Source of the DNA: an uncultured Bacilli bacterium
GTDB taxonomy: Bacteria; Bacillota_I; Bacilli_A; RF39; UBA660
NCBI GenBank assembly: GCA_934097105.1
Contig: CAKONI010000001.1
Coordinates: 7,204-71,203, forward strand
Direction of reading: 5' to 3'
Length of the DNA stretch: 64,000 nucleotides
The position numbers were made by a program, and so were the translations under genes. The notes under the pieces are model-generated. The model made no database searches. It worked only from the letters and a program-made list of their open reading frames with translations, and had not been told where the DNA came from. Numbering within the stretch: the stretch's first letter is position 1; each line of letters opens with the position of its first letter. Below, in pieces: positions 1,816 through 40,106 of this stretch.

Positions 1816-2283
1816 TTACCATTTATAATGAGCGAATGCTTTGTTTGCTTCGGCCATTCTATGTGTATCTTCACGTTTTTTTACTGCTGCACCTGTATTG
1901 TTTGATGCATCAATTATTTCGTTTGCTAAATTTTCAGCCATACTATGACCTCCACGTAATCTAGCATAATTTATTAACCATCTAAGTCCTAATGTTTGGG
2001 CTCTTTCTGTAGAAACTTCGATTGGTACTTGATAGTTTGAACCACCAACACGACGAGATTTAACTTCTAGTGCTGGTTTTATGTTTTCAAGTGCCTTATT
2101 AAATACTTCAATTGGATCGTTTCCAGTTTTTTCTTTAATTGTTTCAAAGGCATTATAAAGAATTTTTTGAGCTTTTCCTTTTTTACCATCTACCATCATT
2201 GAGTTTACTAATTTTGTAATTACTTTTGAGTTATATATAGGATCTGGTAAAACGTCTCTTTTTGTTGCTCTTCTTTTACGCAC
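1816..2283 (-). CDS. rpsG: 30S ribosomal protein S7
   Basis: 155 aa beginning [27 protein letters not shown] and ending ...[10 protein letters not shown], the canonical S7 sequence. It sits between rpsL and fusA. Confidence 0.95.
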
Positions 2284-2330: not shown

Positions 2331-2741
2331 TTATTTTTCTTTTTTTGTTCCGTATTTTGAACGTGCTTTTTTACGATCTTTTACACCTTGTGTGTCCATT
2401 GTTCCACGTATAATGTGATAACGTACACCGATTAGGTCTTTTACACGACCGCCACGAATTAATACTACGCTGTGTTCTTGAAGATTGTGTCCTTCACCAG
2501 GAATGTAAGCATCTACTTCTTTTCCGTTTGACAATCTAACACGTGCATATTTTCTTAATGCTGAGTTTGGTTTTTTTGGTGTTTTTGTTCCAACACGTAC
2601 GCATACTCCACGTTTTTGTGATGATGGTGCGCTTGTCATTTTCTTTTGTAGTGTGTTCATTCTCATACCTAGTACTGGTGATTTTGATTTTCTTGTTTTG
2701 TCTTTTCTGTTTTTTCTTACTAATTGGTTTATTGTTGGCAT
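2331..2741 (-). CDS. rpsL: 30S ribosomal protein S12
   Basis: 136 aa beginning [25 protein letters not shown] and containing ...[29 protein letters not shown], the canonical S12 sequence. Confidence 0.95.
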
Positions 2742-2834
2742 AACTTCTCCTTCCTATACACATATCCAGGTGTATCATTTTCTTTAATTTTTATTAGGTT
2801 TACCTAGTAAACCCAATGCAAATTCAACGATAGT

Positions 2835-2863
2835 AATATATCATTTTGACTTATTTTTGTCAA
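2835..2863 (-). promoter_or_regulatory. Candidate sigma-A promoter of the rpsL-rpsG-fusA operon
   Basis: The minus strand reads TTGACA, then the 17-nt spacer AAAATAAGTCAAAATGA, then TATATT, about 95 nt upstream of the rpsL ATG. The call is by eye only. Confidence 0.4.
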
Positions 2864-2913
2864 TATTTTTTGTTAAATTTGTTTATATTTTATAATATGC
2901 TTATTTTTTATTT

Positions 2914-3324
2914 TTATCTATGCATATCAGATACTATCTCTTCTTTTGGATTTTTCATGAATTTGTTGTAGCCTTGAAGTGATAGTTCTAGTTCTTCTAG
3001 TTTTTTTTCTAAGCCTTTTTCTTCTTTTCCTTCTTTGAAACAATAGTCTGCAAAGTCTGATAGGAAGTTTATTTTGTGAAATGTTTCTCTATAGTCTTCG
3101 GCGCATTCTGCGTCTCCTGTTATCATGGATAAGAAGTGTCCTGCTTGAAAGCATATTTTCTTTATTTCTTCTTTTTTATGCTCTTTCATTAGCCTTTCTA
3201 TGTCTAGATATTTTTCGTCATTTTTTTCTATGGTGTATTTGTCAAAAATTTCCTCTTTATTTAAATGACTTATAATTTCTGGTATTTTGTATTCATTTCC
3301 TTTTATTATTACTTTGTATTCCAT
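2914..3324 (-). CDS. Hypothetical acidic/basic 136-aa protein
   Basis: Clean ORF on the dominant coding strand immediately upstream of the str promoter. No family recognised. Confidence 0.45.
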   Translation of the reverse strand: MEYKVIIKGNEYKIPEIISHLNKEEIFDKYTIEKNDEKYLDIERLMKEHKKEEIKKICFQAGHFLSMITGDAECAEDYRETFHKINFLSDFADYCFKEGKEEKGLEKKLEELELSLQGYNKFMKNPKEEIVSDMHR

Positions 3325-3412
3325 AATTTTATCCTCCTTTTTTCTATTATAACACTTTTTCTTTACTTTTTGTTTTTTTTGATGTATTATATTCTTAATT
3401 TTGGAGGATATT

Positions 3413-4267
3413 ATGCTAAAAAAGAGAATATTTTATAAGGATTTAGTGGGTTATGATAAGAAGATATTTGATTTAGATAGGTCTTCTTATAATGTTGGGG
3501 TGCCTTCGCGTGCTTTTGAATCTATAGTTGATGGTGATTGTAACTCTTTAAATAATAAAGATTCTAGGACTTATTTTTCTATTTTGAGAAGACTTGTTAA
3601 GGAAACTAAGTGTGATAAAAGTGATCTTGTTCTTTCTTTTTTCGATAGATTTTTATTTGCAACGGATTATTGTGATACTTGTTTTGATAAAAATGGTTTT
3701 GAGGCAAGTCTTGAAAACGATGATTTTTTGTATAATTCTAAGTTTACTATTGAGGATTGTCGCGTTTCTTCTTCGGTTAAATTTGGAGATGAAATTACTT
3801 CGGATATTTGTTTTTATAGAAATTTGGATGGGTTTTTGGTTACTTCTAATGATTCTAGGGTTAATGCTTTGAAGTTAGTTGATTCTTCTGGTGTGAATAG
3901 ATTTACTTTAAGTGAAGAGTTTCATTATCTTGATTATGATAAGAATTTCATGCAAGTTGCTAGAGGGGATATTACTTGCAGGGAACGCTTTTCTACTTGT
4001 AAGGATGGAAGTAAGGATAAAATTTATTCTAGTAGTAAGGATTCTACTTATTTTTGGAGACAGAGTGGTTTTATTCTAAAGAAACGTATTTCGGAGGATT
4101 CTCAAGTTGATTATTTTATTGGTCTAGATGATTTTGATAAAGAAATTGATGTTAATACTTTGTTTTATCATGTTGATCGTGAACATGTTAATTTGTTTTT
4201 TAATAAAGAGATTGATACTCAAGAACTTTGGAATTTGACTAATAAAGGTTTTTCTAGAAAGAAGTAA
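3413..4267 (+). CDS. Hypothetical Cys-rich cytoplasmic protein (~284 aa)
   Basis: Long ORF on the minority strand in a genome where random ORFs are short. GGAGGA lies 4 nt before the ATG at 3413; the ORF-track start at 3401 is a TTG. The product has 10 or more Cys and no signal peptide or TM segment. No family recognised. Confidence 0.5.
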   Translation: MLKKRIFYKDLVGYDKKIFDLDRSSYNVGVPSRAFESIVDGDCNSLNNKDSRTYFSILRRLVKETKCDKSDLVLSFFDRFLFATDYCDTCFDKNGFEASLENDDFLYNSKFTIEDCRVSSSVKFGDEITSDICFYRNLDGFLVTSNDSRVNALKLVDSSGVNRFTLSEEFHYLDYDKNFMQVARGDITCRERFSTCKDGSKDKIYSSSKDSTYFWRQSGFILKKRISEDSQVDYFIGLDDFDKEIDVNTLFYHVDREHVNLFFNKEIDTQELWNLTNKGFSRKK

Positions 4268-4282
4268 TTTTTGGAGGTTATG

Positions 4283-5155
4283 ATGGAAAATAGTAAGTAT
4301 AAATCAAATTATGAAAAGTTTAGCAAGTACTCTGATAATTGTATGGGGATTTTGGATGGTTCTAGTTTTTTTGATAAGAATGATGTTGTTTCCACTACTA
4401 GAAATGGTCATCCTGGTATTTGCTCTTTTGATAAGAGACTAGTATGTTTAAAGAAAAGTGATTCTATTTTGGATAGTGCTTTTTTTGAAAAGTTTTATAG
4501 AGCATTTTCATATGTTTGTAATTATGGAAAGGTGGATTCTATTCGTGGGAATAAGTTTAGTGGTTTTGTTTATGATAGAAATAAAATGAAGTATTATCTT
4601 TGGATTACTATTAATAATGATGGGATTGTTTTTAATTCTCAATGCTTTGATACTAAATCTAATGAGGTTTTAAATTTATGTGGAACCTATGAAAATCTTG
4701 ATGATAAGTGTAGTTATAATGTTGAGTATGATTTAAATTATAATGTTGATAAGGATATTTATTCTCATAATATTATGACTTTGGTTTCTAATGGTTATGA
4801 GGTTTCTAGTTTAGAACACAATTCTTTTAAGAACTTTTTTGATGATTCTTATTCAGGTGCTCCTTGTATTTCTTTGACTGTAGAGGAAAATCAAAGGGTA
4901 AGGGATTGTAATTATGTTATTGAAAATAGGAGTTCTAAGGTTGATGTTTCTAATAAGGATGGATTTTTGATTAAGAGTTCTAATGATTCTGGGACTTTTA
5001 TTGGTATGATTGATAAGGAGAGTCCTACTTCTTTAAAGTCTTCTCAGTGTTATTTGGTTGATAAGGAGATTTTTGATTGTTATTTGAATGGTAATTCTGA
5101 TGCTTTAGATATTTATAATCGTGGTAAGGAAAATAAAAGAATGCTTACTTTATAG
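4283..5155 (+). CDS. Hypothetical Cys-rich cytoplasmic protein (~290 aa)
   Basis: Starts 16 bp after the stop of the previous gene. GGAGG precedes the ATG pair at 4280/4283. Cys-rich and N/D/S-rich, with no TM segment. It ends at a bidirectional terminator shared with valS. Confidence 0.5.
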   Translation: MENSKYKSNYEKFSKYSDNCMGILDGSSFFDKNDVVSTTRNGHPGICSFDKRLVCLKKSDSILDSAFFEKFYRAFSYVCNYGKVDSIRGNKFSGFVYDRNKMKYYLWITINNDGIVFNSQCFDTKSNEVLNLCGTYENLDDKCSYNVEYDLNYNVDKDIYSHNIMTLVSNGYEVSSLEHNSFKNFFDDSYSGAPCISLTVEENQRVRDCNYVIENRSSKVDVSNKDGFLIKSSNDSGTFIGMIDKESPTSLKSSQCYLVDKEIFDCYLNGNSDALDIYNRGKENKRMLTL

Positions 5156-5161
5156 AATTTT

Positions 5162-5210
5162 AAAAAAAGATAAACTCGTGTTTTAGTTCTAACTTGAGTT
5201 TATCTTTTTT
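5162..5210. terminator. Bidirectional rho-independent terminator (valS / plus-strand Cys-rich pair)
   Basis: A 10-bp perfect stem, AGATAAACTC (5168-5177) pairing with GAGTTTATCT (5196-5205), is flanked by an A-run on the left and a T-run on the right. The stop codons of the converging genes are at 5153-5155 and 5209-5211. Confidence 0.55.
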
Positions 5211-7734
5211 ATATTTGAGTTTCTAGGTGTTTTAGTTTTTCTTCTTCTTCTTTTAGTTTTTGTCTATCTAAATCTACTACATTTTTTGGTGCTTTGTTTG
5301 TGTAGTTTTCGTTTGATAATAGTTTTTTTCTTTTTTCTATCGATTGTTTTAGGTTTTCTATTTCTTTTATTAACAATTCTTTGTTAATTTCTTTTCCTTT
5401 TTGATAGAATGTTATGTCTATTATGTTTGATTTGTAGTTGTATGCTTTGATGTTTTCGTCTTTTGGGATTTCTGTTTCTTTTAGTTTTAGGGCAAAGGTG
5501 TAGATTTTTTTATATTTACTTTCTATTTGTACTTGTGCATCTTTTGTTATTTCGTTTACTACTTTTAGATTTCTTATGTTTGTTATGTCTTCGATTATTT
5601 TGTCTATTAGTTCTTCTTCTTTTGTGTAGATTTTGTTTTTATCGTAAACTGGATATTTACTTATCATTATGCTTTCTTCTTGAAGTGGTAATTTTTGATA
5701 TATTTCTTCAGTAACGTATGGCATGAATGGATGTAACATTTTTAATATGTTTGTTAGTACTTCTAGGAGTACTGTTTTTGTTGAATTCTCTTGTAATGAG
5801 TTTTTTGATAGTTCTATGAAGTTGTCGCAGAAGTCTTCCCATATGTGTTTGTATAGGGCTCCGCCGGCATTGTTGAATTCGTATTTTTCCATGTTTTCTG
5901 TTACTTCTTTTATTGTTTTATTTGATTTTGTAAGTATCCATTTGTCTATTTCTGATAGGCTTTCTAAGTTATAATCTTCTTTTTTGAAGTCTTCTAGGTT
6001 CATAAGTACGAATCTTGAGGCGTTCCATAGTTTGTTGATGAAGTTCCATGTTGATTTTACTTTTTCTTCGTCATATCTTAAGTCCATTCCTGGGGCGGTG
6101 TTTGTTGTTAGGAAATATCTTAGGGCGTCTGCGCCATATTTTTCTATTACGTCCATTGGATCTACACCGTTTCCTAGTGATTTTGACATTTTTCTTCCTT
6201 GTTTGTCTCTTATTAGACCGTGGATTAGGCAGTCTTTGAATGGTCTTTGATTTGTGAAGTGTAGGCCTTGAAATGCCATTCTGTTTACCCAAAATGGTAT
6301 TATGTCGTATCCTGTTACTAGGACGTTATTTGGATAATATCTTTCTAGATCTTTTGTTTTTTGTGGCCAGCCTAGGGTTGAGAATGGCCAAAGTGCTGAG
6401 GAGAACCATGTGTCTAGTACGTCTTCGTCTTGTTTCCAGCCTTCTCCTTCTGGTTTTTTTGTTCCAACATAAATTTCATCATCTTTGTACCATGCTGGAA
6501 TTCTGTGTCCCCACCAAAGTTGTCTTGAGATGCACCAGTCGTATGTTATTTCCATCCAGTGGTTCATTGTTTTTTCATATTGTTTTGGTACGAAGTTTAC
6601 TTTTTTGTCTTTGTTTTTTTGGTTTTCTAGGACCTTGTCTGCTAAAGGACGCATTTTTACGAACCATTGTTTTGAAAGGTAAGGTTCTACCATTACTCCG
6701 GTTCTTTCTGAGTGTCCTACGTTGTGAGTTATTTCTTCTATTTTTATTAGGAGATTTTGCTCTTTTAAATCTTTTACTATTTCTTCTCTTGCTTTAAATC
6801 TATCTAATCCTTGGTATTTTCCGGCTTTTTCGTTCATGCTTCCGTCTGGATTTAGAATATTTATTCTTTCTAGGTTGTGTCTGTTTCCTACTTCGAAGTC
6901 GTTAGGATCGTGGGCTGGGGTAATTTTAACTACTCCGGTTCCAAATGCGGGATCGGCGTGTTCGTCGCTTATTATTGGTATTTTTTTGTTTACTAGTGGT
7001 AGTATTACGTTTCTACCTATATATTTTTTGTATCTTTCATCGTCTTTATTTACTGCGATGGCAGTATCTCCGAGTAGGGTTTCTGGTCTTGTTGTTGCGA
7101 CTTCTAGATATTTGTCTTCATCTTCTAGATAGTATTTTATGTGATAGAATGCTCCTTTTGTTTCTTTATATATTACTTCTTCGTTTGATAGAGCGGTTTT
7201 GGCTTCGGGGTCCCAGTTTATTATTTTTTCTCCTCGGTAGATTAGTCCTTCTTCATATAGTTTTATGAATACGTATTCTACTGCTTCGGATAGGCCTTTG
7301 TCTAGTGTGAATCTTTCTTTTTGATAGTCTAGTGATAGTCCTAGTTTTGACCACTGATTTCTTATGTTTTCTGCATATTCTTCTTTCCATTCCCAGGCTT
7401 TTTCTAGGAAGCCTTCTCTACCTAGTTCGTATTTGTTTATTCCTTCTTGTTTTAATTTTGCCACTACTTTTGCTTCGGTTGCTATGGCAGCGTGATCCAT
7501 TCCTGGTAGCCAGAGAGCGTCGAATCCTTGCATTCTTTTGTATCTTATTATTATGTCTTGGATGCTTGTGTCCCAGGCGTGACCTAGATGTAATTTTCCT
7601 GTTACGTTTGGTGGTGGTATTACTATACAGAATGGTTCTTTGGTTAAGTCTCCACTTTTAAAGTAGTCTTTTTCTAACCATGTTTTGTATTTGTTTTCTT
7701 CTACTTGTTTGTGATTATATTTTTTATCTAACAT
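5209..7734 (-). CDS. valS: Valine--tRNA ligase
   Basis: 841 aa with the class I HIGH-type motif ([13 protein letters not shown]) and KMSKS ([13 protein letters not shown]), plus a C-terminal coiled-coil. It is preceded by a T-box leader. Confidence 0.95.
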
Positions 7735-7741
7735 TTTACCT

Positions 7742-8010
7742 CTCCTTTTTAAAATAAAAAGATAGTACCTAAAGGACGAGTTTTTCCCGTGGTACCACCT
7801 TAATTTGTAATTTTTATTACCTTATTTATTTAACGCATAATTACGTATTATTCTACTTTGTTCGAATAATCAACTCAAAAGCTACATTCAATTACTTTGT
7901 ATATTAGTTTTCACCTTACACTAACTCTCTTTGATACTTGGTAATTTACTCCTCTTTTTCTTTGTCTTTAACTTAATTGATTTGATATGCTTTCTATTTG
8001 TCCTGCGACG
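7742..8010 (-). promoter_or_regulatory. T-box riboswitch leader of valS
   Basis: The minus strand at 7787-7806 reads AATTAAGGTGGTACCACGGG, matching the conserved T-box sequence AAUUAGGGUGGUACCGCGG. A T-run and the AGGAGAGG RBS follow before the valS ATG. Upstream on the minus strand there is an AGAGAG box and a candidate specifier AAGUAAU (GUA, Val). Confidence 0.6.
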
Positions 8011-9007: not shown

Positions 9008-9788
9008 TTTTTTTCATTCCTTTCTTTTCTTTTTTGTGGTTGTACACTAATAAGAGGATTCCTGCTAGGAATAGAAGTGCTGATATTAATTGTGCTATTT
9101 TTATGTTTCCTAGCATTAGAGAGTCTGTTCTTAGTGATTCGATTATGAATCTTGCTAGTGAATACCAGATGAAATATATTGCTGTTAGGGTTCCTGGTTT
9201 TGTTTTATGTTTTTTTCTTAATATTATTAAGAGGATAAATCCTAAAATGTTCCATATGCTTTCGTATAGGAATGTTGGGTGGTAGTAGGTTCCCTCTATT
9301 TCCATTCCATTTATGATTGTTTTTGGTATGTGCATTTGTTCTAGGGTTTCTTTTGCTGCTTTTATTCCATGGGCTTCTTGGTTGAAGAAGTTGCCCCATC
9401 TTCCTATTGCTTGGGCGATTATTAGTCCTGGGACTGCTAAGTCGAATATTTTTAGGAAGTTTTTTTTGTGTTTTTTACAATAGTATATGAACCAAATTGC
9501 TCCGGATATTATTGCTCCGTGGATTGCTAGGCCTCCGTTCCATATTTCTATTATTTGTATGGGATTTTTTGTGTAATAGCCTAGATTGAAAATTACGTAG
9601 TATAATCTTGCTCCGATTATTCCGAATATTATTCCGTAGAAAATTAGGTTTGTTAGAAATTCTTCTTGATATCCGGCTTTTTTTGCTGATTTTAGAAAAA
9701 TGTATGATCCTGTTAGGATGGCTAAAAACATAATTATTGAATACCAATATATTGAAATTGGACCGATTTCTAGGGCTATTTGGTTCAT
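8991..9788 (-). CDS. lgt: Prolipoprotein diacylglyceryl transferase
   Basis: 265-aa polytopic membrane protein carrying the Lgt signature GRWGNFFNQEAHG. It overlaps the trxB start by 17 nt. Confidence 0.9.
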   Translation of the reverse strand: MNQIALEIGPISIYWYSIIMFLAILTGSYIFLKSAKKAGYQEEFLTNLIFYGIIFGIIGARLYYVIFNLGYYTKNPIQIIEIWNGGLAIHGAIISGAIWFIYYCKKHKKNFLKIFDLAVPGLIIAQAIGRWGNFFNQEAHGIKAAKETLEQMHIPKTIINGMEIEGTYYHPTFLYESIWNILGFILLIILRKKHKTKPGTLTAIYFIWYSLARFIIESLRTDSLMLGNIKIAQLISALLFLAGILLLVYNHKKEKKGMKKSERNL

Positions 9789-9797
9789 GGTTCCTCC

Positions 9798-12623
9798 TTA
9801 ATTTGTTTTTTCTTCTTTTAATATTTTATTTAAATACATTCCTGTGTAACTTTCTTTTACTTTTGCTACTTCTTCTGGGGTGCCTGTTGCTATGATGTTT
9901 CCACCTTTTTCTCCGCCTTCTGGGCCTAGGTCTATAATATAGTCTGCTGTTTTTATCATGTCTAGGTTGTGTTCTATTACTATGACACTGTCTTTATTAT
10001 CTACTATTCTATTTATAATTGCAAGTAGTTTTTTTATGTCGTGGGAGTGAAGTCCTGTTGTTGGTTCGTCCATAACGAATAGAGTTTTTCCTGTTGGTTT
10101 TTTTTGTAGTTCTTTTGCTAGTTTTATTCGTGATGCTTCGCCACCTGATAGTGTGGTTGCGGATTGTCCTAGTTTTATGTAGCCTAGTCCTACTTCTTCT
10201 AGGACTGTTAGTTTTCTTTTTATTTTTGGTATGTTTTCGAAGAATTTTAGGGCTTCGGATACTCTTAGTTCTAGTACTTCGTAGATGTTTTTATTTTTGA
10301 ATTTTATTTTTAGGCTTTCTGTATTGTATCTTGCGCCGTGACATATTTCACATGGGACATATACATCTGGTAGGAAGTGCATTTCTATTTTTTTTACTCC
10401 GTCTCCTCGGCAGGCTTCGCATCTTCCTCCTTTTACGTTGAATGAGAATCTACTTTTGTCATATCCTAGCATTTTGGCTTCTTTTGTTGAGGCGAAGACT
10501 TCTCTTATGTCGTCGAATACTCCGGTATAGGTTGCTGGATTTGATCTTGGTGTTCTTCCTATTGGGTTTTGTGATATGTGTACTATTTTGTCTACGTTTT
10601 CTAGTCCTTTTATTTGTTTGTAGGCTCCTGGTTTTTCTTTTGAGCCATATATATTATTGTAAAGTATTCTTGTTAGTATTTGATTTACTAAGGTACTTTT
10701 TCCACTTCCTGATACTCCGGTTACGCAGGTGAATGTTCCTAGCGGGAACTTTACATTTATGTTTTTTAGGTTATTTTCTTTGGCACCTTTGAGTTCTAGG
10801 AATTTTTTTGTTCCTTTTCTTCGTTTTTTTGGTGTTTCAATACGTTCTTTGCCACTTAAATATCTACCTGTAAGACTATTTTCGTCATTTGCAACTTCTT
10901 CTGGGGTTCCACTTGACACTATTTTTCCTCCGTTTTCGCCTGCTAGGGGACCGATGTCTACTAAATAATCACATTTTTTCATTGTGTCGATGTCGTGTTC
11001 TACTACTATTAGGGTGTTTCCTAAATCACGCATTTCCATCATTGTGTTTATTAATCTGTCGTTGTCTCTTTGATGAAGTCCAATGCTTGGTTCGTCTAGT
11101 ACGTATAGGACTCCGGTTAGTCTTGTTCCTACTTGAGTTGCTAGTCTTATTCTTTGGGCTTCGCCTCCTGATAAGGTTCCGGCGTTTCTACTTAGTGTTA
11201 GATAGTCTAGTCCTACGTTTATTAGAAATTTTAATCTATTTTTTATTTCTTCTACTAGGAGTTCTGATATCTTTTTTTGTTCTTCTGATAGTTTTAGTTC
11301 TGACATGAATTTGTATAGTTTTTTTACACTCAAGTTTGTTGCTTCGTAGATGTTTTTATCGTTTATTAAAACTGATAGTACTTCTTTTTTTAATCTTGCT
11401 CCTTTACAACTTGGGCATTTTAGTTCTACCATATAGTTTTCTAGCCAGTCTCTTACCCATGTGCTTGATGTTTCCATGTATCTTCTTTCTAGGTTGGTAA
11501 TTATTCCTTCGAATATACCTATATTATCTGATAAATGGCCGTTTTTACTTCTGTAGTGGAAGTGAATTGGTTCGTTTGTTCCGTATAGAATCATGTCTAG
11601 TTCTTGTTTTGTGAAGTCTTTTATTTTTTTATTTATATCTATGCCGTAGTGGTCGCAGAAGTTTTGTAGTTTTAGAAAGTTTATGTTTTCTATGTCGTCT
11701 CCGAATGGGACAATTCCTCCTTCTGGGATTGTTTTATTTTTATCTGGTATTACTAGGTCTTTGTCCATTACTAGTTTGACTCCTAGTCCTTTACAGTCTG
11801 GGCAGGCCCCATATGGGGCGTTGAAACTGAAGGTACGTGGTTCTAATTCAGGTAAGGAAAAATTGCAATGAGGACAGGCGAAATTTTCGGAAAATACTAG
11901 TTTTTCTTTGCTTGGAATTTTTATGTGTACTTTGCCATGTGATAGTTTGCAGGCTGTTTCTATTGATTCGTATAGTCTTGATCTTATATTTTCTTTTATT
12001 ATTAGTCTATCTATGACTACTTCGATGTTATGTTTTTTGTTTTTTTCTAGTTCTATGTCCTCGCTTAAATCATATTCTTTTTCGTCTATGTTTACTCTTA
12101 TAAATCCATTTTTTCTTAAATCTTCTAGGAGGTCTTTGTGGGTTCCTTTTTTACCTTCGATTACTGGGGATTCTATTATTATTTTGGTTTTTTCTTCTAG
12201 TTCTAGTATTTTGTTTGTCATTTCTTCGATGCTTTGATTTTTTATAGGAATATGGTGTTTTTCACAGTAAGGGATTCCGATTTTTGAGTATAGTAGTCTT
12301 AGGTGATCATATATTTCTGTTACGGTTCCGACAGTTGATCTTGGGTTTTTGTTGGTGGTTTTTTGATCTATTGATATTGCTGGAGATAGTCCTTCGATTG
12401 AGTCTACTTCTGGTTTTTTTTCTCCACCTAGAAATTGTCTTGCGTAGGCTGATAGGCTTTCTAGGTATCTTCTTTCTCCTTCTTTGTATATTGTATCGAA
12501 TGCAAGGGATGATTTACCGCTTCCTGATACTCCGGTCATTACTATGAATTTGTTTTTTGGGAGTGTTAATGAAACGTTTTTTAAATTGTTTTCTTTGGCT
12601 CCTTTTATTACTATATTTTCCAT
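9798..12623 (-). CDS. uvrA: Excinuclease ABC subunit A
   Basis: 941 aa with two ABC ATPase modules (GVSGSGKSSL and GVSGSGKSTL Walker A; LSGGE signatures) and zinc-finger Cys clusters. Confidence 0.95.
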   Translation of the reverse strand: MENIVIKGAKENNLKNVSLTLPKNKFIVMTGVSGSGKSSLAFDTIYKEGERRYLESLSAYARQFLGGEKKPEVDSIEGLSPAISIDQKTTNKNPRSTVGTVTEIYDHLRLLYSKIGIPYCEKHHIPIKNQSIEEMTNKILELEEKTKIIIESPVIEGKKGTHKDLLEDLRKNGFIRVNIDEKEYDLSEDIELEKNKKHNIEVVIDRLIIKENIRSRLYESIETACKLSHGKVHIKIPSKEKLVFSENFACPHCNFSLPELEPRTFSFNAPYGACPDCKGLGVKLVMDKDLVIPDKNKTIPEGGIVPFGDDIENINFLKLQNFCDHYGIDINKKIKDFTKQELDMILYGTNEPIHFHYRSKNGHLSDNIGIFEGIITNLERRYMETSSTWVRDWLENYMVELKCPSCKGARLKKEVLSVLINDKNIYEATNLSVKKLYKFMSELKLSEEQKKISELLVEEIKNRLKFLINVGLDYLTLSRNAGTLSGGEAQRIRLATQVGTRLTGVLYVLDEPSIGLHQRDNDRLINTMMEMRDLGNTLIVVEHDIDTMKKCDYLVDIGPLAGENGGKIVSSGTPEEVANDENSLTGRYLSGKERIETPKKRRKGTKKFLELKGAKENNLKNINVKFPLGTFTCVTGVSGSGKSTLVNQILTRILYNNIYGSKEKPGAYKQIKGLENVDKIVHISQNPIGRTPRSNPATYTGVFDDIREVFASTKEAKMLGYDKSRFSFNVKGGRCEACRGDGVKKIEMHFLPDVYVPCEICHGARYNTESLKIKFKNKNIYEVLELRVSEALKFFENIPKIKRKLTVLEEVGLGYIKLGQSATTLSGGEASRIKLAKELQKKPTGKTLFVMDEPTTGLHSHDIKKLLAIINRIVDNKDSVIVIEHNLDMIKTADYIIDLGPEGGEKGGNIIATGTPEEVAKVKESYTGMYLNKILKEEKTN

Positions 12624-12655
12624 GTTATTACCTCTTTCTTTTGAGACATATTATA

Positions 12656-13516
12656 TCATATTTTTTTAGTTTTTCCTATTACTTCTTTGTATTCTATTTT
12701 TGTTTCTAGTCCTTTTTTTGAGTTTTTTTCTATGTCTTCATCTATTAGTATTGCATTATTTTGAAATAATAATATAATTGTTGATCCACCGAAGGAAAAA
12801 TATCCTTTTTCTTCATACTTTTTTAGTGTTTTTTTGTTTGTATTGTGGATTTTTCCAATGTTTAAGGCTCCGACTTCTATTTGATAAATTTCTTGGAAGT
12901 TTTCTGTTTTTATGAGTGATACTTCTCTTTGATTTTCTGTGAATACTTTGTGTGTTTCGTAGCTTATTGGGTTTACTGTGTGGAGCAGACCTTTTATCTT
13001 TTTGGTTTTTTTTATTTCTTGATTATCAAAGGCGTGGTATCTGTGATAATCGTCGGGGCTTAGTCTAAATACTAGGCATTTTCCGTTTTTGAAGTTTTTG
13101 TTTGGTTTTTCCTTAATTAGTGTTTCTATGTTGTAGGTTGAGTTTTTAACATTTATTGTTAAGTTTTCTTTTATTTCGTATACCATTAGTTTGGCATCGC
13201 AAGGAGATATTAACAGGTTTTTGTTGATATCTTTTTCTGGTTTTGGGTTATTAACATTTCTTGTGAAAAAGTCATTAAAGTTTTTGTAGGTTTCTTTTTT
13301 ATATTTTGTCATGTCTATATTGTTTTTTTGTATGAATTTTTTTATGTAGGCTTTTGAGAGTTTGCTATTTATTAGGTGACCAGTTATTTTTGAGAAGACT
13401 GGTTTTGTTATTATTTTTAATATTATTCTTCCGGGAATTGTTTTATATAAAAATATTAAAGATTTTTGGTCTTTAATATTTACAATTTTTTTTGTTTTTC
13501 TTTCTATATATTTCAT
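12656..13516 (-). CDS. psd: Phosphatidylserine decarboxylase proenzyme
   Basis: 286 aa containing LSPDDYHRYH and the FSFGGSTIILLF self-cleavage region typical of Firmicutes Psd. Its start overlaps the pssA stop by 1 nt. Confidence 0.85.
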   Translation of the reverse strand: MKYIERKTKKIVNIKDQKSLIFLYKTIPGRIILKIITKPVFSKITGHLINSKLSKAYIKKFIQKNNIDMTKYKKETYKNFNDFFTRNVNNPKPEKDINKNLLISPCDAKLMVYEIKENLTINVKNSTYNIETLIKEKPNKNFKNGKCLVFRLSPDDYHRYHAFDNQEIKKTKKIKGLLHTVNPISYETHKVFTENQREVSLIKTENFQEIYQIEVGALNIGKIHNTNKKTLKKYEEKGYFSFGGSTIILLFQNNAILIDEDIEKNSKKGLETKIEYKEVIGKTKKI

Positions 13517-14160
13517 TATGACAATAAGTAAAGGACTGCTGAGAGTAGAGCTCCGCAGATTACGAAGAAATATATTATTCCGGAAGTTGGTTTTTTTAAT
13601 TTAAAGTTTAGTACATATAAAAGTGCGATGAATGCCATGGTTAGTGTGTATATTATTTTAAATTCTGGCATTGATACGAAGTGTTTTATAAAGTATATTA
13701 CGGGAAAGATGATGGCGGATGCTGTTACTGGAAGTCCACTGTAGTATTTTACTGGGCCGTCTTTTCCTTTTTCGTCCGCTATTACGTTGAAGTATCCTAG
13801 TCTTATTACGCCTCCTAGGGTGAACAGTGCAAATATTATGATATTATACCAGGCGGTGAATCCTAGTCCGTAAAATATTGTTATTGGTAAAAATACAAAT
13901 GATACCATGTCTGCTAGTGAATCTATTTGGATGCCGAAAGATTTTTCTTCATTTGATCTTTTGCATTTTCGTGCTACTTTTCCATCGAATGCATCACATA
14001 TTCCTGATATTACTAGGCAGATTAAGGCATATGATATTTTGCTATTTAGTGCAAGGAACATTCCTATTGTGGCACTTATTACTCCTAAATAGGTGATAAA
14101 TACAGATTTTGTGTAATAGCCTATTAACATTTTTTGTGGTTTTTCTTGTTTTTTGAACAT
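13516..14160 (-). CDS. pssA: CDP-diacylglycerol--serine O-phosphatidyltransferase
   Basis: Carries the CDP-alcohol phosphatidyltransferase motif DAFDGKVARKCKRSNEEKSFGIQIDSLADMVSF in a multi-TM protein. The start was moved to the ATG at 14160 (MFKKQ...), which has AAGGAGG 6 nt upstream and removes the overlap with the upstream gene. Confidence 0.8.
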   Translation of the reverse strand: MFKKQEKPQKMLIGYYTKSVFITYLGVISATIGMFLALNSKISYALICLVISGICDAFDGKVARKCKRSNEEKSFGIQIDSLADMVSFVFLPITIFYGLGFTAWYNIIIFALFTLGGVIRLGYFNVIADEKGKDGPVKYYSGLPVTASAIIFPVIYFIKHFVSMPEFKIIYTLTMAFIALLYVLNFKLKKPTSGIIYFFVICGALLSAVLYLLS

Positions 14161-14170
14161 TTTTTCCTCC

Positions 14171-14749
14171 TTAGATGATGTTACTGTTTTCGTCGAATTT
14201 AACATCTAAATATTTTTTGCTTGATAGATAGTCGCACATGTGTACGAAGAATTCATATTTATTTTTTGGTTTTGAAAGTATTACGTCTGAGTACTCACTT
14301 TTGTTCCATTGTCCCATGTGTGATGCAATTGTGGACGCTAATAGTTCTATTTCTTTGTCTGTGAATGTTGTTTTTTCTTTGTTTTCTCTTATGAAATTTG
14401 CTGCGAGTAGTGGATGATCGAATCTTGTATATCTTTCTTTTATTTTTCCTAGTTTGTGGCTATCGTGGAATAATAGTGCTATTAGTATTAAGTCTTTTTC
14501 GTCTTTGGTAAAACCATTATTCATATATTCTACATCTAGTATATCTTTTGCTATTCTTATAGCGACTTTTGTATGTCTTACTAGTCCTTTTTCGCCTTGA
14601 GCAAATGCAGGGTGATATTTTCCAGTTGATGCTGCGGGTACTTCGAAGAAGTAGTTTGGGACTAGTTCTAGTAGTTTTTTTGTATTTTCTTTATATTTTT
14701 CATTTTTTATATAATCTAGTTCTATTTCAAATATTTTTTCTCTGTTCAT
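14171..14749 (-). CDS. HD-domain phosphohydrolase family protein
   Basis: 192 aa with the H..HD motif (LLFHDSHK) and a downstream His. It is co-oriented with and adjacent to pssA. Confidence 0.65.
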   Translation of the reverse strand: MNREKIFEIELDYIKNEKYKENTKKLLELVPNYFFEVPAASTGKYHPAFAQGEKGLVRHTKVAIRIAKDILDVEYMNNGFTKDEKDLILIALLFHDSHKLGKIKERYTRFDHPLLAANFIRENKEKTTFTDKEIELLASTIASHMGQWNKSEYSDVILSKPKNKYEFFVHMCDYLSSKKYLDVKFDENSNII

Positions 14750-14862
14750 ACTACACCTCTTTTTTTATTTTAACATAAAATAAAGTTGTTGGCTACATTT
14801 TATCATTTTCTTATTACTTTAAGAAGTAAATGCAATTTATATTTTAAATATTTGAGTTTGTT

Positions 14863-15618
14863 TTACTTTATTTTGTTTATTAGTTCTTCTAATTTATCAT
14901 TTGTTTTTAATCTATAGTGTCCGGTTACTTTCATTTCTGTTTTTTCTAGTCTGTCTTCTTCTTTTTGTTTTTGGGTTTCATCTCTATTTTGAATTAAGTA
15001 AGGTACACCATTTTTGTTGTATTTATCTGATACCATGGCGATGTGGGCTGAGTTGTCAAATGTTAGGATGTCTCCGGGCATGAAGTTTTTTGTGTCGTAG
15101 ATATCTGTTGTTAGAGATTCTGTATATTTTTTAAAGAATATTTCTTGATTTTCTACTCTTCTAAAGTCTATATTATCGTCTTGAATTTCTATATTATAGT
15201 CTTTGCTGTTGTCTTTTATATCTTGTGATATCATGCTTTTTAAATCATAACCGGCTTCTTTTAGTGCATACCATATTAAATCTGTACATACTCCTTCTTT
15301 TTCTACTGGTGGATATCCATTTGCATAGTAATTACTTTTGTATGTTGGGTTTAATTTTGCATATTTTTTTTCACCGATTAGGATGTCTTGGTAGTCTTCT
15401 ATGCCATTGTTGTTGTAGTCTTTGCTACTTTTTTCTTTTATATATCCAAAGTCTGATAGGTTGTAGTAGTCTTTTTTGGTTTCTACTTGTTTTAGAGTTT
15501 TGTTTGATGTTAAGTAATAGTTTATGGCTACTGATAGTACAAGTAAAAAGATTATTGATACAAATAGTATGGTTACTTTTTTTATTTTTGGCTTTAGTTT
15601 TCTTTTTTTTCTTTTCAT
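14863..15618 (-). CDS. Membrane-anchored protein, possibly DUF1287-like
   Basis: Lys-rich N-terminus plus one TM segment, then a domain with GVCTDLIWYALKEAGYDL. I recognise this by eye as resembling the DUF1287 motif, without certainty. Confidence 0.35.
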   Translation of the reverse strand: MKRKKRKLKPKIKKVTILFVSIIFLLVLSVAINYYLTSNKTLKQVETKKDYYNLSDFGYIKEKSSKDYNNNGIEDYQDILIGEKKYAKLNPTYKSNYYANGYPPVEKEGVCTDLIWYALKEAGYDLKSMISQDIKDNSKDYNIEIQDDNIDFRRVENQEIFFKKYTESLTTDIYDTKNFMPGDILTFDNSAHIAMVSDKYNKNGVPYLIQNRDETQKQKEEDRLEKTEMKVTGHYRLKTNDKLEELINKIK

Positions 15619-15626
15619 AGGCCTCC

Positions 15627-17579
15627 CTACTTTGTTTTTATTTCGAACAGTATATCTCTTAGTTCCATTGCTCTTTCGAAATCTAGTTCTTTGGCTGCTT
15701 TTTTCATTTCTTCTTCTATGTTTTCTATACTTTTCATATCTATTATATCATTTTTCTTTGTTTTTTCTAATTTTTTTAGTTCTTTTTCATCATTATTTGA
15801 AATGACTTCTCTTATTTCTTTTGTTATTGTTTTTGGAGTGATGTTGTGTTTTTTGTTATATTCTTCTTGAATTTTTCTTCTTCTTTGGGTTTCTTCGATA
15901 GCTTTTTGCATGCTTTCTGTTATGCGATCTGCGTACATTATTACGTGTCCGTCTTTGTTTCTTGCACATCTTCCTATTGTTTGGATTAGACTTCTTTCGC
16001 TTCTTAGGAAGCCTTCTTTGTCGGCGTCTAGTATGGCGATTAGGCTAACTTCTGGTATGTCTAGGCCTTCTCTTAAGAGGTTTATTCCTACGATGCAGTC
16101 GTATTTTCCTAGTCTTAGTTCTCTTATTATTTTTAGTCTTTCTAGGGTTGTTATTTCTGAGTGAAGATATGCTACTTTTATATCTAGTTCTTTTAAGTAT
16201 TTTGTTAATTCTTCGCTCATTCTTATTGTGAGTGTTGTTATTAGGACGCGTTCGTTTTTCTTCGAGCGTTTTCTTATTTCTTCGATTAGATTATCTATTT
16301 GTCCTTCGGTTTTTCGTATTTCTATTGTTGGATCTAATAGGCCTGTTGGTCTTATGATTTGTTCTACTTTATTTTGGCAAAGTGATAGTTCATAGTCTCC
16401 AGGGGTTGCTGATACATAGATTATTTTGTCTGTTTTTTCTTCGAATTCTTCGAATTTTAGAGGTCTATTATCTAAGGCACTTGGAAGTCGGAAACCGTAG
16501 TCTACTAGGGTTGTTTTACGGGCTCTGTCTCCATTATACATGGCTCTTACTTGGGGCAGGGTTACGTGGGATTCATCTATTACTAAAAGGTAGTCATCTC
16601 CAAAGAAGTCCATTAGTGTGTTTGGGGTTTCTCCTTCTTTTCTTCCTGATAAGTGTCTTGAGTAGTTTTCTACGCCACTGCAAAAGCCTGTTTCTGTTAG
16701 CATTTCTATGTCATAGTTTGTTCTTTGTTCTAGTCTTTGGGCTTCGAGTAGTTTGTTTTCATTTTTTAATTCTTCTAGACGAATTTCTAGTTCTTCTTTT
16801 ATGGATTTTATGGCTTTTTTCATTTTTTCTTCGCTTGTTACGAAGTGACTTGCTGGGAATATTGTTACGGTTTTTATTATGTTTTTTACTTTTCCTGTTA
16901 AACTATCTATTTCTGAAATTTTATCTATTTCGTCTCCGAAAAATTCTACTCTTATTCCATTTCTTTTTTCTGAGTTTGGTATTATTTCTAATATGTCTCC
17001 GCGGACTCTGAATGTTCCACGTTTGAAGTCGTGATCGTTTCTTTCGTATAACATGTCTATTAGTTTTTTCATTACTTTGTCTCTTTCGAGTTCGAATCCT
17101 GTAGTTAGTGTTAGGGTGTTATTTTTATATTCTTCTACTTCTCCGATTCCATAGATGCAGGAAACTGAGGCAACGACGATTACATCTTCTCTTGATAGAA
17201 GAGCGGAAGTTGCCCCGTGTCTTAACTGGTCTATTTCGTCATTTATTGAGGAGTCTTTTTCTATGTAGGTATCTGTTCCGGGAATGTAGGCTTCTGGTTG
17301 GTAGTAGTCATAGTATGAGACGAAGTATTCTACTCTATTTTCTGGAAATAGTTCTTTTAGTTCGGCATAGAGTTGTCCGGCTAATGTTTTATTGTGGGCT
17401 AAAACTAGGGTTTTTTTATTTGTTTCTTTTATTACATTTGCTATTGTAAATGTTTTACCTGTTCCAGTGGCTCCTAAAAGGACTTGGTGTTTTTTGTTTT
17501 CTTCTACGCCTTTTACTAGTTCTTTTATGGCATTTGGTTGGTCTCCACTTGGTTTATATTTTGATACTATTTTGAACAT
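15627..17579 (-). CDS. uvrB: Excinuclease ABC subunit B
   Basis: 650 aa beginning [36 protein letters not shown], with helicase motifs and the C-terminal UvrC-interaction coiled-coil [21 protein letters not shown]. Confidence 0.95.
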
Positions 17580-17674
17580 AGAAAATCTCCTTTCTTTTTT
17601 TTGCTTTAAATATTTTTCATCATTATTTTAACACTTATTTTAGAAGAAAACAAGTAAGTTTGTTTGCTATTATT

Positions 17675-18292
17675 TTATCTTTTTCGCACTTTATTTTTTT
17701 CTTTGATATATAGGTATTCTTCGATGTGATATTGATGGTTTATATCATGAATGTCTTCAATTTCTTGAAGTTTGTTGTACATTTTCATGAAGACTATGTT
17801 AAATGGTTTGTAGTAACTTCCTGAGTTTCTAAATCTTATTTGTATTTCTTTGTGAGGGTGATTATCTTCTTTGTGATCTTTGATAGGATTTTGGGATAAA
17901 AATTCTAGCTTGAAACTATTTTCTAGTTTTTTTATTTTAAGGATGCTTGCTATTTTGTGCAAATCTTCATCGGAGTACCAGGTGATTGTTTTTTGCTCTT
18001 TATTGAATAGTTCATTATAATTTGAAAGGTTATATTTGTGATATTTTTCTGGGCCTTCGGAAGTGTGTGTTTTACTTATATTAGCATTTTTAATGTCTTT
18101 ATAAAGTTTGTTAAATAGGTTATATAACTCATAGTTTTCTTTGGTTATAAAAAAATAATTAGATTCTGGTGAGGAATTATTTGATTTGTTTTCAAATTCC
18201 CAATATAAATCGTCGTTTCCTCTTAAGAGGATTGTTAATGTTTTTTCTTTGTCTATGAGGATTATTTCATTTTCTTTTTTTATAATTTTCAT
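17675..18292 (-). CDS. Hypothetical 205-aa protein
   Basis: Clean ORF divergent from the amidoligase-like gene. No family recognised. Confidence 0.45.
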   Translation of the reverse strand: MKIIKKENEIILIDKEKTLTILLRGNDDLYWEFENKSNNSSPESNYFFITKENYELYNLFNKLYKDIKNANISKTHTSEGPEKYHKYNLSNYNELFNKEQKTITWYSDEDLHKIASILKIKKLENSFKLEFLSQNPIKDHKEDNHPHKEIQIRFRNSGSYYKPFNIVFMKMYNKLQEIEDIHDINHQYHIEEYLYIKEKNKVRKR

Positions 18293-18427
18293 GTGCTTTT
18301 CTCCTTTATTTGGTTTTATTTATATTATAGCAGATATTTTTATTTTTGGATGATTTACTGTATTTTTTCAAATTGACAAAGTAATATTGCTATGTTATAT
18401 TAAATATCAATTTAATGGTGATATATA

Positions 18428-20134
18428 ATGGATTTTGAAAGAGATGATTCTTTTTATGATATTGATTTAACTAATTGTCATACTAGAGAGGAAAGAATTA
18501 AGAAAATTATTGAAAATAAAATGCTTGATTATTTGTTTTCTTTTTTAAATGATGATGAAAAGGATGAATATTATATTTTTTTGAGTTATAATCGTTTGTA
18601 TAATTATTTATCTAGTAAGACGGAGGACTTTGTTTTTAAGCATTTGACTAATCATTTTGATAGACTTAGTGAATATGATATTGTTAAATTATTAGATTTT
18701 ATTGATAATGATAAACTAAAGTTTAAAATTATAGAAAGGCTTATTGAAAATGATTACATGTTTTTTATAGAGATTGCTTCTAAGAAGATTGATAGTGATC
18801 TTTATAAAATTAAAGTAATTGAGTTGTTAATAAAAAAAGAGGTTTTTAGTTTGACGTATGCTCCCATTGTGGGATCTTTAGGGAGTGATGAGAATAAAAA
18901 ATTGTTTTTTCCTTTTCTTTCTTTATATGAAAGAGTTAATTTAATTAAAGATTTTTCTGATAAGTCTTTAATTAAAGAGTTTGCTTTGAATGAAGAGTAT
19001 TTTGATTTTCAGTCTGATTTAGTTATTGCTACTTTTGATAAGGATTTTATTAGGGAAATGTTTTTAAATGTAAAGGTTCCTGTTTTTAGGAATAATGTTA
19101 TTAATAAGATTGATGATTTGGTGTTTAAACTTGAATTAATAAATTTACTGGATGATAAGAATGTAAAGAATTTCTTTTTATCTAATTTTAGTGATTTTTC
19201 AAAGGATTTTTTAGTTGAGGTTGATGATGAAGATTTTAATGAGGATAGGGTTGATAGGAATATTACTATAGGTGTGGAACTGGAGTGCGCTAATGAGGGG
19301 ATTATGAATTTTGAGGAAATTAATAGTATTTTTGAGGATTTTATGATTACTGGTGATATTAGTGTTAAAAATGGTTTTGAAATTGTTTCTCCGATTCTTC
19401 ATTATACGAGGGAGGATATGGGAAAATTAAAGTCTGTTTGTGAGTTTTTAAAAAAATGTGATTTTTATACAAATAGTTCTTGTGGTGGACATATACATAT
19501 TGGTGCGGATTATATAAAAAATAGGAATGAGTTGTATATGCTTTTGTATTTATATAATAACTGTGAAAATATAATATATTTGATTTGTAATAGAGAGCAT
19601 TCTAGGTCTAGGAGGAATATTAATAAGTATGCTAAAACTACTAAGAAGGCTTATTTGGAGGCTTGTGGGAGTAATTTGTTAAATGGAAATTTAACGAATG
19701 AGGAAACTGTCAGAAAAATAGTTGGTATTAATACTTCGCGTAATATGGGGCTTAATCTTATAAATATAAATAATAATTTTAAGCATACGATTGAGTTTAG
19801 GATGCCTAATGGGGAGATTGATTTTGAGGAGTTATTATGTAATATTAGGTTATTTGCAATGCTTGTTCAAAGATCATATGAACTTGCTAATGATATGCTT
19901 TCAAGTGAAAAAAAGGATTTGGTAGAGAAATTAAGTCATCAAATGCCTGAGAGTAAAAGACTGGAGATATTTTTAAATATTTTGTTTGATAGTGAAGAGG
20001 AGAGGGATATTTATTATAAGAGATATCATTCGAATATTTCGTTTATAAAGTCTATGTCTAATAAGTTGTTTTATGGTAATGGGGAGTTTTTACAAATAAA
20101 TGATGATAGTAAGAGATTGTCTTTAAAGAAGTGA
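18428..20134 (+). CDS. Protein with C-terminal amidoligase-like (glutamine-synthetase/GCS2-fold, Amidoligase_2-type) domain and ~270-aa N-terminal extension
   Basis: Residues ~280-480 carry an ordered motif series: GVELECAN, then GFEIVSPIL, then SCGGHIHIGADY, then TIEFRMPNGEID. This series is characteristic of carboxylate-amine ligases of the GS/GCS2/Amidoligase_2 family. The N-terminal half is acidic and Phe/Leu-rich with a repetitive feel. Confidence 0.55.
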   Translation: MDFERDDSFYDIDLTNCHTREERIKKIIENKMLDYLFSFLNDDEKDEYYIFLSYNRLYNYLSSKTEDFVFKHLTNHFDRLSEYDIVKLLDFIDNDKLKFKIIERLIENDYMFFIEIASKKIDSDLYKIKVIELLIKKEVFSLTYAPIVGSLGSDENKKLFFPFLSLYERVNLIKDFSDKSLIKEFALNEEYFDFQSDLVIATFDKDFIREMFLNVKVPVFRNNVINKIDDLVFKLELINLLDDKNVKNFFLSNFSDFSKDFLVEVDDEDFNEDRVDRNITIGVELECANEGIMNFEEINSIFEDFMITGDISVKNGFEIVSPILHYTREDMGKLKSVCEFLKKCDFYTNSSCGGHIHIGADYIKNRNELYMLLYLYNNCENIIYLICNREHSRSRRNINKYAKTTKKAYLEACGSNLLNGNLTNEETVRKIVGINTSRNMGLNLININNNFKHTIEFRMPNGEIDFEELLCNIRLFAMLVQRSYELANDMLSSEKKDLVEKLSHQMPESKRLEIFLNILFDSEEERDIYYKRYHSNISFIKSMSNKLFYGNGEFLQINDDSKRLSLKK

Positions 20135-26255: not shown

Positions 26256-26398
26256 CTCATTACTGGATATTATAACAAATATTTTTTGCTTTTCAAATAT
26301 AAAGTGACTTTTGTCATTAAATATTTTTTTAAATTATATCTTTTGGCATATATACTAAAAACAGTAATTATTTTATAATAATTGTGAAAGGAGAGAAT

Positions 26399-35030: not shown

Positions 35031-35099
35031 TTTTTATTTCTCTCCTTCCGCCATGACTTTTGTCATAGTAATAATAATTCTTGTATAGTATAGCAAATT

Positions 35100-39900: not shown

Positions 39901-40106
39901 AAATTATACCCCCTTAACAATTTGAATGGCATTATTGTATCATACTTGTTGATTTTTGTCAAATATTTTTGCTGTTTTTGATTTTTTTCTATGTTCTTTG
40001 TAATTATATTATTTACTTTTTATGTTATTAGTGTTTTTTTATGACATTTTTTTTGCTTTTTCTTTTTGGATTTTTGGTGTATAATTTTTATAAGGTAGGT
40101 GGCTTT

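Follow-up and report, generated by a model that had tools for sequence, protein, structure and literature searches.

A taxonomically restricted and probably accessory gene cassette at the valS-rpsL junction of an uncultured gut Bacilli bacterium

We analysed a stretch of 64,000 nucleotides from an uncultured Bacilli bacterium (GenBank assembly GCA_934097105.1, contig CAKONI010000001.1, positions 7,204 to 71,203 of the forward strand), called the window from here on, and particularly three genes that lie in it between the str operon and valS. One of them, orf136, is on the minus strand, and the other two, A and B, form a pair on the plus strand (Table 1). These three genes probably constitute a taxonomically restricted accessory cassette, made of ordinary orphan accessory genes. 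Its insertion between valS and rpsL would date from the ancestor of a single small clade of uncultured Bacilli from the gut, and its inheritance would have been vertical since then. A and B would be transcribed as a two-gene operon from a sigma-70-type promoter of their own, predicted from sequence signals, translated from strong GGAGG sites and terminated at a hairpin which they have in common with the convergent valS. Furthermore, A and B would be under weak purifying selection, diverging very fast, individually dispensable and present as two recombining haplogroups.

Distribution of the cassette

We compared 80 valS loci from species-representative genomes, as well as the contigs encoding homologues of the three proteins. 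The genes that flank the cassette mark the source as an uncultured Bacilli of low GC content from the gut. The nearest records were metagenome-assembled genomes (MAGs) labelled as uncultured Bacilli, Tenericutes or Mycoplasmatota, coming from human (Hadza), rabbit, goat and chicken guts. What they have between valS and rpsL is given in Table 2. In a tree of valyl-tRNA synthetase (ValRS) the carriers (the window with L001, L004 and L085) form one clade, and orf136, A and B are missing from the sister clade (L005-L009) and from L010. B is the one gene of the cassette that all the three carrier lineages have kept, and its place and orientation, convergent on valS, are identical in every carrier; it is also present, 99% identical, in L094. 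Since the position is the same in three lineages of one ValRS clade, a single old event followed by vertical descent is suggested.

The spacers of L005, L009 and L010 align solely to positions 2700-2912 of the window, which correspond to the rpsL leader and promoter, and therefore the clade-specific block extends from around 2913 to 5155, plus the terminator, practically the coordinates given in the initial annotation. The initial annotation had raised the possibility that this segment is an insertion, and relative to these genomes it is one. Moreover, no housekeeping homologue was found at this locus in the related genomes.

The carrier lineages differ in what accompanies B. In L004, positions 3356-3407 of the window are kept at 90% identity ahead of B, though the neighbouring genes are lost, and a degenerate ribosome-binding site and start of A (GAAGG and ATA) lie just upstream of the ribosome-binding site of B itself. 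Because the promoter and these remnants are still there, A seems to have been deleted in the L004 lineage. The L085 lineage is 93% identical to the window in RpsL and 65% in TrxB, and the 138-aa positional orthologue found in L085-L093 aligns with orf136 at 43% identity within the N-terminal 44 aa (E 5e-9); orf136 is missing from L004 and the sister clade. At the position of A, L085 encodes an integral-membrane protein of the DUF6512 family on the opposite strand (9385-9918, minus strand, 177 aa).

The valS-rpsL junction is a variable hotspot in the genus. In L006 the interval (12523-19652) holds an intact diversity-generating retroelement (DGR), with a PD-(D/E)XK transposase adjoining valS, a 697-aa target, a MutS_I fragment, bAvd and a reverse transcriptase; the variable region (VR, 16994-17124), within the target gene, and the template repeat (TR, 17382-17512) are 131 nt long and 79% identical. 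The entire insert is absent from L005, the ValRS of which is 98% identical to that of L006 over the C-terminal 515 columns compared. The interval of L008 (12520-22196) encodes GNAT, a histidine phosphatase, two radical-SAM proteins and a class II tRNA-synthetase-like protein, and further LD-carboxypeptidase, SDR, MgsA/RarA and an APH-type kinase. With such variation of the junction within the genus, the idea that cargo between these two conserved loci is atypical is weakened.

Table 1. Features of the str-valS region of the window
Feature	Position	Strand	Remarks
rpsG	1816-2283	-	str operon
rpsL	2331-2741	-	str operon
Best sigma-70 match in the region	2863-2835	-	TTGACA-17-TATATT with upstream TG; in the 172-bp spacer between the orf136 stop and rpsL
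orf136	2914-3324	-	open reading frame; left member of the putative clade-specific block, oriented toward the rpsL promoter
Promoter-like site for A-B	3362-3390	+	TTTACT-17-TATTAT; consensus scan, 9/12 matches; predicted
GGAGG ribosome-binding site of A	3403-3407	+	5 nt upstream of ATG 3413; read from the sequence
Gene A	3413-4267	+	open reading frame, 284 aa
GGAGG ribosome-binding site of B	4273-4277	+	5 nt upstream of ATG 4283; read from the sequence
Gene B	4283-5155	+	open reading frame, 290 aa
Putative bidirectional intrinsic terminator, B and valS	5163-5210	both	hairpin; inverted repeat I2 flanked by an A-run and a T-run
valS	5209-7734	-	convergent with B

Table 2. Content of the valS-rpsL interval in the relatives, and identity of their ValRS to that of the window
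Loci	Interval	ValRS identity
L001-L003, L091, L092 (same species)	orf136-A-B	99% (L001)
L004	B only, 47% identical	87%
L085-L090, L093, L095	138-aa orf136 orthologue, DUF6512 membrane protein, 24% identical B orthologue	82-84%
L005, L009, L010	empty spacer of 190-430 bp	72-81%
L006	7.1 kb with DGR	80%
L008	9.7 kb with metabolic and other genes	80%

Coding capacity and family searches

All three are genuine coding genes. With the local base composition one would expect a stop roughly every 11 codons, and open reading frames (ORFs) as long as A and B would arise by chance with a probability of about 1e-11 to 1e-12. Their third codon positions (T.64-.67, G.17, A.13-.17, C.02-.03; for A, T.64, G.17, A.17 and C.02) have the silent-site composition of the other plus-strand genes with Pfam-recognised domains, such as a class A penicillin-binding protein (45070-47019) and a response regulator (22959-23600), while codon positions 1 and 2 depart from it. 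The ratio of non-synonymous to synonymous substitution rates (dN/dS) between the two haplogroups described below was 0.27-0.37 for A (Fisher p 1e-5 to 6e-8) and 0.39-0.49 for B; for both genes between strains it was 0.27-0.49 (Fisher p 6e-8 to 6e-3). For orf136 it was 0.06-0.20 between strains, which agrees with its first annotation as a real gene.

The reading frames are also well kept. Among around 35 distinct allelic protein variants from public assemblies, A always has 284 aa (14/14 variants of its 90% cluster and 5/5 cluster representatives are full-length) and nearly all the B variants have 290 aa. We found 14 allelic variants of orf136, and none of the 12 full-length sequences that were read had an internal disruption. 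Between the haplogroups, which are around 11% apart in nucleotides, the frames of A and B are kept with zero indels, and the frame of B is kept in the 47% and 24% identical orthologues. All three proteins lack hydrophobic segments (19-residue Kyte-Doolittle means reach 0.8 at most), their isoelectric point is about 5.3, and neither a transmembrane segment nor a signal peptide was found in A; A and B are predicted to be soluble, acidic and cytoplasmic, and orf136 to be small, soluble and acidic.

Regarding their families, the initial annotation had recognised none for A and B, and this is what the searches gave too. None of the three proteins had a match above the cut-off in Pfam, NCBIfam, PHROGs or PADLOC. 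The best sub-threshold match was AGRB_N, with 18.7 bits against a cut-off of 27; Pfam searches with all five members of the B family, at E up to 10, gave no weak match in common, and PADLOC gave 0 matches at E up to 1. Against the sequences of the PDB, no E value was better than 0.15, whether the query was a profile (A and B) or the single sequence (orf136). The AlphaFold2 models of A and B have low confidence (mean predicted local distance difference test, pLDDT, of 47 and 42 respectively), and with them Foldseek found no match below E 0.1 in the PDB, only insignificant matches to beta-meanders.

The homologues are few. Among 5.8 billion clustered proteins, A has five clusters, each 81-95% identical and with no others, and B has five clusters, at 98, 82, 47, 24 and 24% identity. 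An exhaustive HMMER search with the B profile against 1.84 billion representatives returned three proteins. Searches of phages and plasmids with tblastn and two scans of IMG/VR gave no relatives; a scan of JGI metagenomes gave two loci, both of types already found, and no new relatives. Profiles of A, B and orf136 against all ORFs of at least 80 aa in around 95 loci and the window gave no further members or paralogues. A is confined to one species-level lineage, and both A and B are orphans in the usual sense: a narrow lineage, coding evidence and an empty syntenic site in the sister species.

We also considered an alternative genetic code, as in the gut Bacilli order RFN20 reassignments of AGG to Met and of CGG to Trp are known (PMC8629427). 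This was rejected and table 11 was kept, because in the 24 window genes surveyed CGG is unused (0/365 Arg codons), the sites of AGG (37 uses, mostly in plus-strand genes) exchange between R and K, and ATG is abundant.

Expression signals

A and B are separated by 15 nt, and the context of the ribosome-binding site of A recurs at the start of B (repeat D7), so the first description of two linked plus-strand genes with GGAGG sites was right. The promoter-like site lies within the 88-bp spacer between the divergent orf136 and A. The putative terminator, likewise proposed from the start as bidirectional and common to B and valS, is situated between the stop codons of both genes, that of valS overlapping its T-run. 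As RNA it folds stably on both strands, with free energies of -19.2 (plus) and -16.4 (minus) kcal/mol and z of around -5.7 and -6.0, and 0 shuffles matched its stability. A strict terminator scan, with a minimum of 3 G-C pairs, did not detect it. A similar hairpin is found 3' of the B orthologue in L085, where expression signals are present as well.

In contrast to the initial annotation, in which orf136 sat over the promoter region of the str operon, the best promoter match is in the spacer between orf136 and rpsL, and so orf136 would be upstream of the promoter and not over it. Further along the str operon, fusA (minus strand) is incomplete at the left end of the window. Two expected housekeeping riboregulators were also detected on the minus strand, a T-box leader upstream of valS (7769-7971, 126.9 bits) and a ribosomal-protein leader of the L31-Firmicutes type (35042-35068, 35.4 bits).

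Divergence, haplogroups and gene loss

The window and L001 are 96.8% identical over 14 kb. The differences per 250 bp were 1-6 in the flanks and 21-44 in 3500-4750, with no indel in A or B. The synonymous (dS) and non-synonymous (dN) divergences were 0.26 and 0.093 for A, 0.21 and 0.091 for B, 0.087 and 0.005 for valS, 0.091 and 0.006 for orf136, and 0.17 and 0.023 for trxB. Overall, the dS of A and B was 0.21-0.26 against 0.03-0.10 in the flanks, and their nucleotide difference was around 11% against 1-2%.

This excess is not a uniform increase of the rate, because within a haplogroup A differs as much as orf136 does: the window and L091 differ by 2.3% in A and by 2.4% in orf136. Between the pair formed by the window and L091 and the pair formed by L001 and L092, the differences were around 10-11% in A and B and around 2% in orf136. 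Thus there are two deeply diverged A/B haplogroups in one species, on near-identical backgrounds. The 88-bp promoter spacer has 1 difference between the window and L001 and 1-2 between the haplogroups, and the terminator is conserved. The alleles recombine, because allele P0029 is a mosaic, of haplogroup I up to around residue 210 and of haplogroup II beyond it. At a longer distance, B is 47% identical where ValRS is 87% identical, and 24% where ValRS is 82-84% and TrxB 65%.

Variability driven by a DGR was tried as an explanation for A and B and rejected, as the window has no reverse transcriptase, Avd or TR/VR. The reverse transcriptase and Avd of L006 gave no tblastn match below E 0.02 in the window, no long direct repeats were found in 2700-5300, and the differences in A and B are spread over 3500-5150 and not confined to a VR-like segment.

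In L091 (6740-7519) a deletion of 46 bp, equivalent to 5050-5095 of the window, causes a frameshift in B and truncates it to 259 aa; this comes from a metagenome contig with 7x coverage, and an assembly error is possible. This frameshift, the loss of A in L004 and the lack of the block in the sister species suggest that the genes are dispensable. The disruption in close relatives that the initial annotation had named as evidence against its proposal is therefore found in part, one case each for A and B besides the lack of the block in the sister clade. B is not junk, because it has been retained for long at one site and its dN/dS is below 1.

Relationship between A and B

A may be an old and very diverged tandem paralogue of B; the data are suggestive, not secure, and we give this an even chance or slightly better. 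BLASTP between them gave an E of 0.23, and tests of hidden Markov models (HMMs) against shuffles were weak (p 0.01-0.5). With hhalign the C-terminal 27-28 residues were aligned at equivalent positions (P 0.083 and 0.012), with a common motif consisting of FIG, around 14 residues and Y-x-V-D-x-E. The global alignment had a z of 3.7 (3/1000 shuffles), and the z of all 8 pairs of A-family by B-family members was positive (0.7-3.7), compared with -2.0 to +1.4 for three control proteins. The low-confidence models of A and B are predicted to have their elements in a matching order, namely two long helices, a meander of five strands, an unstructured middle, 3-5 strands and a C-terminal helix. The nearly equal length of the two proteins and the similar contexts of their ribosome-binding sites are a further hint.

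Possible roles and known systems

The known situation closest to the cassette is that of orphan genes in variable islets. Like them, it is limited to a narrow clade, lies where core genes meet at a junction whose content changes from species to species, evolves under weak purifying selection, is polymorphic for presence or absence and has no recognisable domains. It differs from them in its fully native composition, and in that B stays at the same site and in the same orientation down to 24% identity, which points to some retained function and not to transient junk.

The most plausible class of function for A and B would be a role in conflict at the strain level, for instance in phage interaction or immunity. 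We infer this tentatively, and it is possible rather than probable, from the location in a hotspot, from alleles that are dimorphic, recombine and have a raised dS, from the variable presence of the genes and from the DGR that a sister species has at this site. A more specific explanation is that A and B are an undescribed two-protein conflict module (phage defence, anti-defence or inter-strain immunity), with ancient recombining haplogroups under balancing or frequency-dependent selection. The polymorphic immunity and conflict arrays (SUKH/Imm-type, defence islands) resemble the pair in being tandem, cytoplasmic, fast-evolving and narrowly distributed, and in showing allelic dimorphism, gene loss and a hotspot, although this resemblance is circumstantial. 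Unlike them, A and B have no Pfam or PADLOC match and no neighbouring toxin, secretion or nuclease gene. No PADLOC or Pfam component of defence or immunity was matched, which leaves room for an undescribed system; as a whole we regard the module as unlikely. The DGR cassette of L006 is similar to A and B in occupying the valS-rpsL interval and in encoding a hypervariable protein. However, the window has none of the DGR components, and the variation of A and B runs across both whole genes, whereas that of the DGR is in a C-terminal VR of around 130 nt.

Orientation and strand composition

Around 83% of the coding length of the window is on the minus strand and 17% on the plus strand, so it is correct that nearly all the genes run on the minus strand and that A and B are in the minority orientation. 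In the minus-strand genes the third positions are around.60 A,.20 C,.15 T and.04 G, and every plus-strand gene has the complement; on the plus strand the third-position skews are +0.7 for GC and -0.5 for AT. The label of lagging-strand operon, which had been given to A and B, is not established: the plus strand is the G+T-rich one, and in most of the related MAG loci (L011-L084) this polarity belongs to the genes of the majority orientation, presumed leading. In the clade of the window, its sister clade and L010 (L001, L005-L008, L010, L085-L093) the majority genes have the opposite polarity; in the window, the A+C-rich strand is the one that carries the str operon, valS, uvrA and uvrB, all in the majority orientation. 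There are two possibilities for the genus: core genes over 64 kb or more would be head-on and A and B co-directional with replication, or the strand bias would be reversed. The window contains neither the origin nor the terminus of replication and does not fix the leading strand, and in the literature we found no description of a reversed strand skew in these lineages.

Apart from A and B, the window has sizeable ORFs without a Pfam family at 26384-27985, 40041-41000 and 48230-48730 on the plus strand and at 36600-38159 on the minus strand. As 3 of the 6 other plus-strand genes have no Pfam family, the minority-orientation genes of the window are enriched for unrecognised proteins.

These data bear on the explanation that the rapid divergence of A and B comes mainly from head-on conflict between replication and transcription, and not from relaxed or diversifying selection. 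In head-on genes more non-synonymous change has been reported (Merrikh and Merrikh 2018, PMC6220195), and A and B are like them in having the minority orientation in a strongly co-oriented region, dN and dS both above those of the flanks and raised dN/dS; the other plus-strand genes without a family would also fit. Nevertheless, we consider this improbable. The dN/dS of A and B is below 1 and the excess of divergence is an effect between the two haplogroups, A and orf136 differing equally within one of them. Furthermore, the plus strand has the signature of the presumed leading strand in most related MAGs, and the third-position skew of A and B is that of their own strand, which gives no indication of a recent inversion.

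Origin of the cassette

Another explanation is a mobile element acquired horizontally not long ago, or what remains of a prophage or plasmid. In its favour, the sister species lack the insert, the junction has also received the DGR with its transposase (L006) and 9.7 kb of other genes (L008), so that foreign DNA is accepted at this site, and the lack of known homologues is common for phage genes. On the other side, its third-position composition is indistinguishable from that of the resident plus-strand genes, and this native composition argues against a recent horizontal acquisition. Neither an integrase, a transposase, a flanking repeat or a tRNA at the cassette nor relatives in phages, IMG/VR or plasmids were found, and it lies at one position in three lineages of one ValRS clade. 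By recombinases, repeats or tRNA, foreign composition and phage or plasmid relatives, the cassette does not appear to be a prophage or mobile element, and we give this origin a low probability.

Cysteine content

The initial annotation had highlighted at least 10 Cys in each protein, which is right for B (11) and not for A (8). These numbers are 2.8% of the residues of A and 3.8% of those of B, the highest fraction in the window. The expectation on the strand of A and B is around 4.6% with random codons and 3.4-3.7% with position-specific composition. Because the observed Cys does not exceed what the base composition predicts, its abundance seems to be mainly compositional. It would arise as a side effect of coding under weak constraint, on a strand where the silent sites are around 64% T, 17% G and 2% C, a composition that favours the codons TGT, TTT, GAT, TCT and AAT; actually Phe, Asp, Ser and Asn, whose codons are of the NNT type, are enriched in A and B too.

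The Cys residues are only partially conserved. Among the aligned alleles 81-95% identical to the A of the window, 4 of the 8 Cys of A are invariant (C67, C87, C90 and C133), and the remaining ones change to Tyr, Gly, Ser or Asp via single-base changes. C189Y in A and C55Y in B segregate inside one haplogroup. B retains 7 of its 11 Cys in the 47% orthologue and one, C121, in the 24% orthologue (P0010). There is a single CxxC in A (C87/C90), and B has neither CxxC nor CxxH pairs. Scans of the family libraries gave no metal-binding family for A or B. A catalytic Cys-His pair in B (C121, H162) was considered and dropped, as the alignment to A is unstable.

In view of this, it is highly improbable that A and B are dedicated metal-binding or redox proteins based on Cys (Zn, Fe-S or thiol-disulfide). 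In its favour are the Cys fraction of B, the invariant Cys of A with their C-x2-C, the 7 Cys retained by B and the presence of trxB one gene past valS. Against it, the frequency of Cys is not above the compositional expectation, with 3.4-4.7% as its full range, the replacements of Cys are common between and within haplogroups, and C121 is the only one kept in the distant orthologue of B. CxxC or CxxH pairs conserved across homologues, as in metal-binding motifs, do not appear to be present in A and B. The significance that the initial annotation implied for the abundance of Cys is not supported.

Assessment

The weakest explanation, that A and B are chance frames and not genes, has in its favour that stops are rarer on the A-poor plus strand and that long spurious ORFs antisense to real genes do exist on it (for example 16382-17011, 209 aa, and 53567-54277, 236 aa), and it is effectively refuted by the negligible chance probability of each frame even at the local composition, the lack of any gene opposite A and B, their dN/dS of 0.3-0.5, their codon-position-specific composition, the GGAGG site of each and the frames kept over such divergences.

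Several points weigh against the accessory cassette as we describe it. The expression of A and B is read solely from sequence signals. The raised dS may come from an imported diverged allele instead of balancing selection, as trxB too has a dS of 0.17. The 7 Cys of B kept in the 47% orthologue and the 4 invariant Cys of A, including the CxxC, may have a lineage-specific structural or metal role for a subset of them. The paralogy of A and B is statistically insecure, by the HMM shuffles and BLASTP alike, and the two structural models, with their low confidence and negative Foldseek results, give no support for a function.

With these points considered, the accessory cassette is still the explanation that we prefer. 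A and B are a new small family and a phenomenon of a known kind, with no evidence for an unusual mechanism. If the conflict module were true, it would add a new family. The loci form a natural series, in which the site is empty or holds B by itself, orf136 together with DUF6512 and B, all three genes, or a frameshifted B, and this series is useful for studying the persistence and decay of orphan genes in reduced gut Bacilli. The valS-rpsL junction is now flagged as a variable hotspot in the genus. Finally, to take the Cys, the headline feature of these proteins, as a compositional artefact keeps a metal-binding annotation from spreading.

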